This document shows positions 16,428 through 19,873 of a stretch of 64,000 bases of DNA, piece after piece. The notes under the pieces were generated by a model. The model worked only from the letters and a program-made list of their open reading frames with translations. It was not told where the DNA came from and did not search any database. The position numbers and the translations under genes are program-made. How positions within the stretch are numbered: position 1 is the stretch's first letter; every line of letters begins with the position of its first letter. Source of the stretch: a virus (lineage: Duplodnaviria > Caudoviricetes); the IMG/VR virus record IMGVR_UViG_3300042154_002208, one strand, 5' to 3'.

Positions 16428-17102
16428 ATGATCTATAATCATGTTAAGGTGAAAGAATTTGAGGAACTGGAACAAGTTACTCGAGAAGATGGAGTAAGAT
16501 TTTACGCAACACCCAAAGGTAAAAAATATCCTTCGGTGACTACTGTTTTATCAGCGCATGGTAAACAAGGATTAATGGAATGGCGTAAAAGAGTAGGTGA
16601 AGAACAAGCAAATAAAATTTCAAGCGCTGCCGCAAGACGTGGCACTAAAATGCACTTGCATTGTGAAAATTATCTTAATAATGTCAATGTGCTAGATACA
16701 ATTCCAGTATTTCAAAAAGAATTGTTTGAAAGTATTATCCCATATCTACATAAAATTAATAATGTTCATGTTCAAGAACAAAGATTATATTCTGACCATT
16801 TAAGATTGGCAGGAACTGTAGATTGTGTTGCCGAATATGAAGGTCGCTTAGCAATCATAGATTATAAAACATCTAGCAGACGAAAAGCTAAAGAACACAT
16901 TCATAATTATTTTATGCAGTGTGCTGCATATGCAGTTATGTATGAAGAACGAACAGGTACACCTGTAAGCAAATTAGTTATTATTATGGCAGTCGAAGAC
17001 GATGAACCTCAAGTATTTGTCGAAAAACGAGATAATTGGGTAACCAAATTATTGGAGTACAGAGATTTGTACGAAAAGGACAAACAACTTTTGACTTCTT
17101 AA
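16428..17102 (+). CDS. PD-(D/E)XK Cas4-like exonuclease
   Basis: YPSVTTVL, RGTKMH, LAGTVDCV, IIDYKTS, YFMQCAAYA. Confidence 0.88.
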   Translation: MIYNHVKVKEFEELEQVTREDGVRFYATPKGKKYPSVTTVLSAHGKQGLMEWRKRVGEEQANKISSAAARRGTKMHLHCENYLNNVNVLDTIPVFQKELFESIIPYLHKINNVHVQEQRLYSDHLRLAGTVDCVAEYEGRLAIIDYKTSSRRKAKEHIHNYFMQCAAYAVMYEERTGTPVSKLVIIMAVEDDEPQVFVEKRDNWVTKLLEYRDLYEKDKQLLTS

Positions 17103-17119
17103 ACAAAAGGCATTATAAT
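17091..17119 (+). promoter_or_regulatory. sigma70 promoter of the tmRNA gene
   Basis: TTGACT(17091-96)-17bp-TATAAT(17114-19); predicted start near 17126. Confidence 0.85.
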
Positions 17120-17133
17120 AGAGTTATTGCTGT

Positions 17134-17331
17134 ATGAAGCAAAGAGAAACAGATTCTGGACGCGGGTGCGAATCCCGCCAGGTCCACCATAAAGATTTAC
17201 CGCCCGAACCGCAGAAGCCAAATTCTTGTTGCGGTAAAGGATGCGAGGGTTGTGTTTGGATTAGTTATTTTGAAGCACACAACCTTTGGAAAAGTCTTTA
17301 TGATGGGCCTGAAATAGATTCGACAGGGTAA
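17134..17331 (+). CDS. Cys-rich Oxidored-like (PF09791-type) mini-protein overlapping the tmRNA
   Basis: PPEPQKPNSCCGKGCEGCVWISYFEAHNLW matches, from memory, the P-x-P...CC-x-x-GC-x-x-CVW-x-x-Y pattern; no clear SD, ATG about 8 nt from the predicted transcription start. Confidence 0.6.
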   Translation: MKQRETDSGRGCESRQVHHKDLPPEPQKPNSCCGKGCEGCVWISYFEAHNLWKSLYDGPEIDSTG

Positions 17332-17388
17332 AGAGTACCAGAGTGGACAGCACATCAGAGTAGATGTTAAAACTAAAACAAAGTAAAC

Positions 17389-17421
17389 GCAAACGACTCA
17401 CAGTTCGCATTAGCAGCCTAA
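17389..17421 (+). other. tmRNA proteolysis tag reading frame (A)ANDSQFALAA
   Basis: Resume codon GCA after TAAAC; C-terminal LAA degron. Confidence 0.9.
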
Positions 17422-17504
17422 ACTCTGCTTAGGGTTTCGATAGGTTTCCTCGTAACAGAATAACCTATCATTTCACAAACACTCATACACACAAGGAGAT
17501 TAAA

Positions 17505-17777
17505 ATGAGTAATATGACACCGTTCGAAATTAGATTAGAACTTTTAAAAATGGCCAAAGATATGCTTGGTGACGATTACTACGGTAAACGTGAAGTAATA
17601 TCTAACGATTGGGCTACTAAGGTAGAGACAGCTAAACATGCTGGCCAAACACCTCCAGAGCATCCGGGCTATCCTGCCTACCCCTCAGAAACTGATATTA
17701 TTGCAAAGGCTCATGTATTGAATGGCTTTGTTTCTAACATTCCTCAAGATAATATAAAGACTATTAGTAAAAAGTAA
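17505..17777 (+). CDS. conserved phage hypothetical protein
   Basis: Strong SD AAGGAG after a CA-rich leader; MTPFEIRLELLKMAKDML. Confidence 0.8.
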   Translation: MSNMTPFEIRLELLKMAKDMLGDDYYGKREVISNDWATKVETAKHAGQTPPEHPGYPAYPSETDIIAKAHVLNGFVSNIPQDNIKTISKK

Positions 17778-18656: not shown

Positions 18657-19184
18657 ATGTCTACATTAAAAGAACAAACTTACGAAAAACACAAAGAAGC
18701 GGAAACCCAAGCTTTTATCAAAGAGATTTTTCAAAAGAGAGTTGATAAAAATAAGTATGCGGAATACCTCTATCAATTATACTTAGTATATCATGCAATG
18801 GAAAACATTGCAGGTCCAAAATTAGGTGCATATGAAGGTATCCCTGGTCTTTACAGATCTAAAGCAATTTTTGAAGATTTTCAGGAATTGGCAGTACCGG
18901 ATAAAACATATACCATTAAAGAATCCACATTAAGGTATATTCAGTATATCATGGACATTACTAAGCATGATGATTTAATTGCACATATGTATGTAAGATA
19001 CTTAGGTGATTTAAATGGCGGACAAATTTTTGCTAAGCTTGTTCCTGGTTCCGGCAAAATGTTTCAATTCGAAAATAAAGAAGAGCTAACAGAAAAGTTC
19101 CGAGCCAAATTAAAAGACGACATGGGTAAAGAGGCCTGTGTTGGATTTGATTATAATATACAAATTGTTAAGGAATTTAACTAA
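18657..19184 (+). CDS. hemO: heme oxygenase
   Basis: Proximal His in TYEKHKEAE; distal AHMYVRYLGDLNGGQI. Confidence 0.9.
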   Translation: MSTLKEQTYEKHKEAETQAFIKEIFQKRVDKNKYAEYLYQLYLVYHAMENIAGPKLGAYEGIPGLYRSKAIFEDFQELAVPDKTYTIKESTLRYIQYIMDITKHDDLIAHMYVRYLGDLNGGQIFAKLVPGSGKMFQFENKEELTEKFRAKLKDDMGKEACVGFDYNIQIVKEFN

Positions 19185-19873
19185 TGTCTTCGGTGTGGGA
19201 TACGTTAATTAAGATTGAACAATATCTTGAACATAAATTTTATGCTACCGGTAGTATTATACACGAACCAGCCATGGAGCGTTTTAATCAGCCGGGTTGG
19301 GTAAATAAAGTATGGGCCAGTAGCCGATACCGAAGAGCACACATTGACGTGGTAGATGCTCGTGAAACTAAAGGACTTTGGATGATGCATTGTTGCATCT
19401 TTCCGCATACACACAATCCCGCACCTATCTTTGGATTTGATGTTATAGCAGGTAAAAATAAGATTACCGGGTGTTTTATTGATTACAGTCCTGCGGGCGA
19501 TGTGAACCACCACATGATTAAATATTTTGGTGAAGAAGTTAGAAAATACGAATGGAATAAAAAACGCAAACTACCAGACTGGGCCGAACGTATTTTCAGT
19601 GAGCATATGGTAGCTGCTGGTAACGTAAGTGAAGAAAATGAATTAAAACAACTTACAAGTTTGGCACATATCCTAGTTAATCATTATGTAGACACAGTAG
19701 ATGAAACTAATCAAACTGCTAACGATACAGCACCTGAACAGAATTATTATTGTGAAAATCAAAAACAAAATCCGCACACTCCTAAAGTTATGGTTAGTTT
19801 GGGGTTGAGTGAAGATGATGTTCGGCATTTTATTCAGGAATGCTTGTTCCCAGAATTACAAAAATTAAAATGA
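19184..19873 (+). CDS. pcyX: ferredoxin-dependent bilin reductase (PcyA/PcyX type)
   Basis: RRAHIDVVD, MMHCCIFP, IFGFDVIAG, NYYCENQKQNPHT; adjacent to heme oxygenase; the subfamily call is an inference. Confidence 0.8.
   Translation: MSSVWDTLIKIEQYLEHKFYATGSIIHEPAMERFNQPGWVNKVWASSRYRRAHIDVVDARETKGLWMMHCCIFPHTHNPAPIFGFDVIAGKNKITGCFIDYSPAGDVNHHMIKYFGEEVRKYEWNKKRKLPDWAERIFSEHMVAAGNVSEENELKQLTSLAHILVNHYVDTVDETNQTANDTAPEQNYYCENQKQNPHTPKVMVSLGLSEDDVRHFIQECLFPELQKLK

Follow-up and report, generated by a model that had tools for sequence, protein, structure and literature searches.

A PF09791 mini-protein gene probably read in frame through the permuted tmRNA gene of a freshwater T4-like phage

Introduction

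Can the spacer of a two-piece tmRNA gene, whose RNA is discarded when the tmRNA matures, also be part of a protein gene that is read straight through the tmRNA itself? Permuted two-piece tmRNA genes have been described in aquatic T4-like phages, namely the OM43 phage Melnitz and the pelagimyophages (PMC9004378), and two-piece genes are also known from Alpha- and Betaproteobacteria and from cyanobacteria (Keiler 2000 and Sharkady & Williams 2004 via PMC9004378; PMC11915505). The 2025 tmRNA database paper lists as unusual spacer contents a tRNA-Ala gene and a repeat element only (PMC11915505), and neither that paper nor the Melnitz paper mentions spacer ORFs (PMC9004378, PMC11915505).

The question is raised by a 64,000-nucleotide stretch of viral DNA (IMG/VR record IMGVR_UViG_3300042154_002208; Caudoviricetes), here called the window. 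A preliminary description had reported a 65-codon ORF at 17134-17331 that crosses the T-arm and CCA end of a permuted tmRNA, its whole 115-nt intervening segment (IVS) and the 5' acceptor strand; we confirmed this ORF in every detail. It had also supposed the arrangement to be undescribed, and we found no earlier account in the searchable literature: full-text searches returned no description of a tmRNA-spanning ORF of this kind.

Results

An intact permuted tmRNA with an ORF running through it

ARAGORN called a permuted tmRNA at 17097-17512 with the tag ANDSQFALAA, the sole tmRNA of the window. With cmscan against Rfam, the locus scored 113.1 bits on RF04321 (tmRNA_permuted; cut-off 47) over 17128-17421 and 103.6 bits on RF01850, the betaproteobacterial two-piece model (cut-off 84). 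Its parts follow the permuted order of 3' acceptor half, spacer, 5' acceptor half and tag frame (Table 1). The alanine identity pair G3:U70 is present as G17307:U17183, the CCA end is encoded, and the tag tail is of the LAA type. A consensus scan predicted a near-consensus promoter at 17091-17119 (TTGACT-17-TATAAT, 11/12 matches), placing the predicted transcription start near 17126, about 8 nt ahead of ATG 17134, as the preliminary description had proposed. The 5' end of the acceptor piece (17126) is taken from the same prediction.

The IVS boundaries are identical in 56 Oxidored-type loci, and the two ends of the IVS are predicted to fold into a 9-bp closing stem (17190-17198/17292-17300). 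This stem covaries across 65 unrelated IVSs, with a mean of 10.1 bp compared to 6.1 bp when the arms were given mismatched partners. The acceptor piece supplies residues 1-19 of the ORF, the IVS residues 20-57, and the coding piece residues 58-65 and the stop, which falls 27 nt past the inferred RNase P site at 17304/17305; mature tmRNA therefore serves the ORF as codons over 83 nt. There is no start codon within the IVS; the frame opens ahead of it, at 17134, and closes at 17331 in the mature RNA. AUG 17134-17136 sits in the hexaloop of a predicted hairpin (17127-17131/17138-17142), and the UGA that overlaps it is the stop of the upstream gene in other phages.

Table 1. Features of the nested gene and its permuted tmRNA in the window, with examples of other spacer-borne genes in related loci
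Feature	Position	Strand	Basis	Remarks
Promoter, sigma-70-type (predicted)	17091..17119	+	Consensus scan	-35 TTGACT 17091-17096; -10 TATAAT 17114-17119
tmRNA acceptor piece	17126..17189	+	cmscan alignment and sequence	3' half of tRNA-like domain
GUAUGAAG motif	17132..17139	+		Holds ORF AUG 17134-17136; conserved in the phage tmRNA clade
ORF P0001	17134..17331	+		ATG 17134 to TAA 17329-17331; 65 codons
T-arm	17162-17178			T-stem 17162-17166/17174-17178
3' acceptor strand	17179-17185			
Discriminator plus CCA	17186-17189			CCA 17187-17189
IVS	17190..17304	+		115 nt, between CCA end and G1 of GGGCCUG
IVS closing stem, 5' arm	17190..17198	+	Fold prediction	Doubles as codons K20-D21-L22
PF09791 (Oxidored-like) core	17197..17295	+	Pfam	Residues 22-54
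Four cysteines	17227-17253	+		C32, C33, C37, C40
IVS closing stem, 3' arm	17292..17300	+	Fold prediction	Doubles as codons around K53-S54-L55-Y56
tmRNA coding piece	17305..17470	+	ARAGORN and cmscan	3' end approximate
5' acceptor strand	17305-17311	+		GGGCCUG
Tag reading frame	17389-17421	+		ANDSQFALAA, then stop
Cargo examples (L106-L185 and others)	L069:1568-1669; L074:1569-1640; L111:2964-3227(-); L174:10238-10609(-)			Spacer-borne small genes

Among the carriers of the nested module that we scanned, the tmRNA is likewise intact, with 96-127 bits on the permuted model and with tag frames ending in LAA or LAV in every carrier that had an ARAGORN call. Carrier tags fall into two very different classes, 10-residue ANDxxFALAA tags and 27-residue tags, indicating that the same cargo occupies different tmRNA backbones. 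The 27-residue tags that share spacer cargo with the ANDxxFALAA class were seen in L001, L014, L054 and L065 (e.g. ANANTTVTVSGKNIKFSARTAKESLAV).

The spacer encodes a PF09791 module

A resemblance to the Oxidored-like family had been proposed in the preliminary description, and the Pfam HMM bore it out: residues 22-54 match PF09791 with an E value of 2.5e-10 and 40.3 bits (gathering cut-off 24), well past what chance would give. The IVS-encoded module carries the P..P..CC.xGC..CVW..Y signature with its four cysteines. A word-indexed protein search found five homologue clusters that retain the cysteine motif, with homologues at 62-97% identity. Across 74 aligned homologues C32, C33, C37 and C40 are invariant, and P26, P29, G34, G36, V41, W42 and A48 are each at least 90% conserved. 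The expectation that relatives would keep the cysteines thus held for this alignment but not for every nested copy. Tyr replaces the second cysteine in L058 and L059, and L060 (L060:1435-1641), a member of the ACG lineage described below, has lost the motif through an in-frame 57-nt deletion; these copies look impaired.

AlphaFold2, run with the 74 homologues, gave a pLDDT of 86-93 over residues 21-50 with a helix at 41-56, compared to less than 52 in the tmRNA-encoded N-terminal tail and 49 at the last residues. The folded unit would therefore consist essentially of the spacer-encoded residues, and the tmRNA-encoded residues are modelled as disordered N- and C-terminal tails that flank it. 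A fold search of the PDB with the module model returned no match, and the weak matches in Swiss-Prot were all other PF09791 proteins; the PF09791 region of yeast YPL107W superposed at an rmsd of 1.4 A over 32 residues (47% identity; weak Foldseek E value of 0.7). By sequence profile, PDB 7zm7 chain o matches the family (E 6e-13). This single solved match to the PF09791 profile is a 380-aa "oxidoreductase-like domain-containing protein" of Chaetomium thermophilum complex I (7zm7/7zmb/7zmg chain o), which we take to be possibly the subunit that the authors of the structure call Ct-NDUFV3. The complex I paper behind 7zm7 does not name chain o in its text, and we dropped the transfer of a function from it for this reason. 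A PHROGs search gave no significant family, and a search of the literature for a function of PF09791 found none.

The spacer evolves as coding sequence

A scan of IMG/VR gave 232 related stretches, 80 of which we examined. Once loci were anchored on the CCA end and G1, 56 had an Oxidored-type IVS; these IVSs, 109 or 115 nt long, comprise 35 distinct DNA sequences, and the 35 copies, all of the nested type, were used for the selection tests. On the 31-codon core without the stem-forming ends, the GY codon model of IQ-TREE gave an omega of 0.073 (lnL -797.6); fixing omega at 1 on the same tree cost 110.5 log-likelihood units (lnL -908.1). Pooled Nei-Gojobori (NG86) pN/pS was 0.24-0.27 in the ORF frame, compared to 1.96 and 0.97 in the other frames, with a pooled pS of about 0.5 and pN of 0.13. 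Variable sites at codon positions 1, 2 and 3 numbered 13, 16 and 30. The single indel among the copies, the 6 nt by which the 109- and 115-nt forms differ, is in frame, and in several sets an identical peptide is encoded by different DNA versions. The window IVS folds better than shuffled sequences (z -2.8), and RNAalifold found no compensatory pair inside the IVS. The IVS is real coding sequence under strong protein-level purifying selection, and the frame preservation and synonymous bias anticipated for 17190-17304 are thus borne out across the 35 copies.

Free-standing relatives and two topologies

At E <= 1e-3, an exhaustive search with a profile of the 38 IVS-encoded residues matched 420 proteins, and the closest of these are 47-62-aa proteins with their own Met just ahead of the domain. 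In related phages the mini-gene stands free, encodes 43-56 aa and lies directly upstream of the tmRNA (L100, L102, L061, L064-68), with its stop inside the conserved GUAUGAAG motif; a free-standing phage copy scored 46.8 bits on PF09791. Free-standing phage proteins (L100, L061, L102; P0009, P0011-16) have the same PxPxEPTxCCGxGCxxCVW..Y core as the window module at up to about 90% identity, and the Burkholderiales proteins (Variovorax, L095-L098) have it at 50-61%. Unlike the window module, these genes have their own start and stop, and their domain does not overlap an RNA gene.

The two arrangements are best seen in L100 and L049 (the same contig as L113). The gene order in L100 is PhoH, 2OG oxygenase, GH19, MazG-like, PD-(D/E)XK, a 69-aa ORF, thioredoxin and a 50-aa Oxidored-like gene. 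The Oxidored-like gene starts at an ATG that shares an ATGA with the stop codon of the thioredoxin gene, and it ends at the TGA within GTATGAAG, the sequence with which the permuted tmRNA gene begins. In L049 the thioredoxin gene itself ends in the GTATGA element, where its TGA overlaps the ATG of the tmRNA-spanning ORF with the nested module, again as ATGA. The two are colinear at 77% identity save for the relocated acceptor piece, which follows the mini-gene in L100 and precedes it in L049. Judged from these gene overlaps, the thioredoxin and mini-protein genes stay coupled through ATGA in either topology. No thioredoxin gene occurs in the window's own phage. The four invariant cysteines and the repeated translational coupling to a phage thioredoxin gene together suggest a thiol, metal or redox role for the module.

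Two motif patterns found five bacterial relatives among 185,579 species genomes, in Variovorax, other Burkholderiales and Competibacteraceae. All five are free-standing with no tmRNA detected nearby, and we discarded bacterial tmRNAs as a source of the nested gene on this basis. Ahead of the mini-gene, a phage-like contig (L012:1068-1967) and Variovorax soli (L095:178-1329) each have a gene for a TctC/Bug-family binding protein. Joint capture of the two genes from a betaproteobacterium was considered and rejected; the two TctC proteins are merely 23% identical, so that the shared neighbour looks coincidental.

A second family also occupies both slots: a 41-aa gene ending in GTATGA lies upstream of the tmRNA (L044:1371-1496, L060:1368-1493), and a 42-aa homologue with 41% identity to it lies within the IVS of L189 (1827-1955), with its own Shine-Dalgarno (SD) sequence and ATG. 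From such placements, genes seem to shuttle between the slot upstream of the tmRNA and the spacer slot.

The start codon and the transcript

ATG 17134 is the sole canonical in-frame start between the upstream stop at 17119-17121 and the motif, a stretch with no other ATG, GTG or TTG. We infer that AUG 17134 is the start codon, and translation from this position is likely; the best available support is the ATGA-coupled thioredoxin/mini-protein unit found in both topologies. Conservation of the ATG, which the preliminary description had put forward as a check, is itself unspecific. GTATGAAG is present in 64 of 76 sampled related phage tmRNAs whatever the IVS cargo, and the ATG therefore belongs to the tmRNA; moreover, one sub-lineage has ACG in its place, with L044 and P0010 retaining the cysteine motif. 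The ATG frame is open through the IVS in 7/7 Oxidored-type versus 5/48 other distinct IVSs. Transcription from the predicted promoter would give a leader of about 8 nt that has no SD sequence. In the ACG lineage, we considered an upstream extension of the frame (87 aa from an ATG at L044:1438) and discarded it: it overlaps the real 41-aa gene in another frame, and the open 87-aa frame in L044 is thus probably incidental.

Metatranscriptome contigs of relatives from six runs cover both mature tmRNA parts and mostly skip the spacer core, though contigs from such libraries cannot reveal RNA ends. One 193-nt metatranscriptome contig spans 17210-17401 across the RNase P site, at 92% identity and a depth of 2.9 that leaves room for DNA carry-over. 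A search with the IVS alone matched no run on record as RNA. The spacer-skipping contigs and the 193-nt junction contig are compatible with a short-lived precursor.

Other small genes in the spacers, and the phage

We performed an exact-pattern scan for the T-arm and acceptor end, which gives a sample unbiased towards the ORF. The resulting 77 loci held 66 distinct spacers of 25-491 nt, seven of them Oxidored-type; the spacer is hypervariable in this clade. At least 25 of the 77 loci, all of other types, have an SD sequence and ATG directly after the CCA, and the remainder had no obvious ORF. Other cargo includes hydrophobic peptides of 20-41 aa, an 86-aa CxxCxxCC (PF03692) protein and a 123-aa protein, and pairwise pN/pS was 0.13-0.41 in six families of spacer-borne genes. 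The window ORF is thus one case of a wider habit, in which the tmRNA spacers of these phages hold many small genes. Most of the others have their own ribosome-binding site and start codon; the window module has neither.

An 88-nt spacer type (L004:3001-3171, L062, L083, L158) may be a second read-through cargo. Its tmRNA-internal ATG frame is open as a 56-aa ORF, and differences among the copies are 3 synonymous and 1 non-synonymous. Upstream of it, at about 2918-3001 of L004, a 27-codon hydrophobic ORF ends in the GTATGA overlap.

The neighbours of the tmRNA in the window include PhoH, a GH19 lysozyme-like protein, a PD-(D/E)XK nuclease, a cell-wall hydrolase and haem oxygenase, and syntenic relatives add gp59 and a transcription co-activator. 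Pelagibacter phage HTVC008M matches the window's ssb region at 75% identity, and the window DNA recurs in lake-water metagenomes. On this genomic evidence the window is assigned to an uncultured freshwater T4-like myophage of the pelagimyophage/Melnitz kind. The haem oxygenase gene (Pfam E 9e-26) is found at 18657-19184, some 1.2 kb downstream from the tmRNA. The gene after it in the syntenic L004 encodes a ferredoxin-dependent bilin reductase and by synteny would correspond to 19184-19873 of the window. This pigment-pathway pair is better known from cyanophages.

Discussion

The explanation that best unites the observed gene anatomy, family membership, purifying selection, intact tmRNA and topologies of the relatives is that a nested PF09791 mini-protein gene is read in frame from AUG 17134 through a functional-looking permuted tmRNA, to which we give a probability of roughly 0.7. 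Given the selection on the nested frame, and with no other transcript able to carry the module, one transcript appears to act as both messenger and stable-RNA precursor. Translation would start in the GUAUGAAG element, cross the T-arm, CCA end and spacer and end in the mature coding piece. RNase P cleavage at 17304/17305 would separate the final eight codons and their stop from the frame, and trimming back to the CCA end would take away the rest; since these steps destroy the frame, the messenger could only be the unprocessed precursor or a longer read-through transcript. Ribosomes on the nascent transcript would keep the acceptor and closing stems open, and after they leave the stems would fold and the RNA would be processed into two-piece tmRNA. 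Because the acceptor stem (17179-17185/17305-17311) and the closing stem need the whole, ribosome-free spacer, we favour an order in which the RNA is translated first and processed afterwards, which is at least as likely as the mutually exclusive fates suggested in the preliminary description. The start codon, the timing and the function of the protein are the parts of this account that we propose.

Several other readings of the locus deserve consideration. The motif could be an untranslated relic of a recently captured gene fragment, conserved merely because its copies are young, as might be expected in a tmRNA clade whose spacers are often swapped for unrelated inserts. Yet the copies have diverged widely at synonymous sites (pS about 0.5 against pN 0.13), their one indel keeps the frame, an omega of 1 fits 110 log-likelihood units worse than 0.07, and carriers differ in tmRNA backbones, tags and flanking genes, leaving this explanation very improbable. 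Conservation for an RNA function, such as processing signals or a structured spacer with the open frame as a by-product, is more improbable still: the IVS ends do form a conserved covarying closing stem, and the window IVS has its fold z of -2.8, but variation is concentrated at third codon positions, there are no compensatory pairs inside the IVS, and the peptide family has free-standing members in phages and bacteria. We reject both explanations on the omega value, the third-position variation and the lack of internal compensatory pairs. Nor do we expect the tmRNA to be a decaying remnant at what is now merely a small protein gene. High covariance-model scores, the G3:U70 pair, the CCA end, intact LAA/LAV tag frames in every ARAGORN-called carrier and metatranscriptome contigs of relatives covering both mature pieces make this, too, very improbable.

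A more serious alternative, although one we still consider unlikely, is that the module is translated from somewhere other than AUG 17134, that is from a non-canonical start near the CCA, by ribosomes arriving from the upstream gene along read-through transcripts, or from the excised spacer RNA. The ACG sub-lineage with its intact motif in L044 and P0010 would fit such a route, as would the poor initiation context of a short SD-less leader and the absence of a + strand terminator between the upstream PD-(D/E)XK gene and the tmRNA. Against it, the stretch between the 17119-17121 stop and the motif offers no other in-frame ATG, GTG or TTG, the three IVS subtypes share no other conserved start, the ATGA overlap in L049 falls on the very ATG that matches 17134, and an excised spacer would be without any start codon. 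Somewhat less likely again, we think, is a tighter link in which synthesis of the mini-protein is wired to tmRNA maturation: the RNase P cut would make a non-stop message at whose new 3' end ribosomes stall, and the nascent mini-protein would be marked for degradation by its own tmRNA. Accumulation of the protein would then be confined to times of low capacity for processing or trans-translation, such as the early phase of infection, and the stop/start overlap that recurs at the GUAUGA element would belong to this coupling too. The analogy is with arfA, a non-stop mRNA regulated by trans-translation, in that a processing cut within the ORF would give a non-stop message that tmRNA can tag; if true, the locus would work much as ArfA control does, as a timer or sensor that refers to itself.

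Reading from AUG 17134 through the tmRNA, the explanation we prefer, has parallels among known systems. SgrS/SgrT, RNAIII/delta-haemolysin and SR1/SR1P are dual-function RNAs in which the mature regulatory RNA is itself the messenger. Like them, the window RNA would combine a non-coding job with a small protein from one transcript; unlike them, its maturation would destroy the messenger, so that the RNA would code in one processing state and act as stable RNA in another. Closest among published cases is the S23p ORF of Coxiella burnetii, which lies in an excised 23S rRNA IVS and is reported to be decaying and probably not synthesised in vivo (PMC4990558). Both ORFs occupy a stem-closed spacer excised from a stable-RNA precursor. 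The S23p ORF is contained wholly in its IVS, which is excised by RNase III, whereas the window ORF extends into mature RNA on both sides of a spacer removed by tRNA-processing cuts, and it is under selection (omega 0.07) where S23p is reported to decay. The Melnitz and pelagimyophage tmRNAs share with the window the order of acceptor piece, spacer and coding piece, an early promoter, and the co-activator and gp59 neighbours. In the Melnitz and tmRNA database papers the spacer is discarded RNA, whereas the window spacer is selected coding sequence (PMC9004378, PMC11915505). A gene nested in a stable-RNA spacer and a dual-function transcript are thus known kinds and not a new category; what is new is that the cargo has no ribosome-binding site of its own, that its frame passes through mature tmRNA, and that two topologies exist.

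In genome annotation, a gene caller will hide the tmRNA at this locus and a tmRNA finder will hide the ORF. For PF09791, a widespread family with the mitochondrial members OXLD1 and YPL107W, it adds a minimal 38-residue form and a thioredoxin-linked context. The locus also illustrates gene movement between two positions, one just ahead of a stable-RNA gene and one within it, and offers a compact natural system for translation versus stable-RNA processing on one transcript. A spacer formerly seen as throw-away RNA is here under protein-level purifying selection, and with 83 nt of mature tmRNA used as codons, the same bases would be under three constraints at once, those of tRNA-like structure, processing signal and protein.
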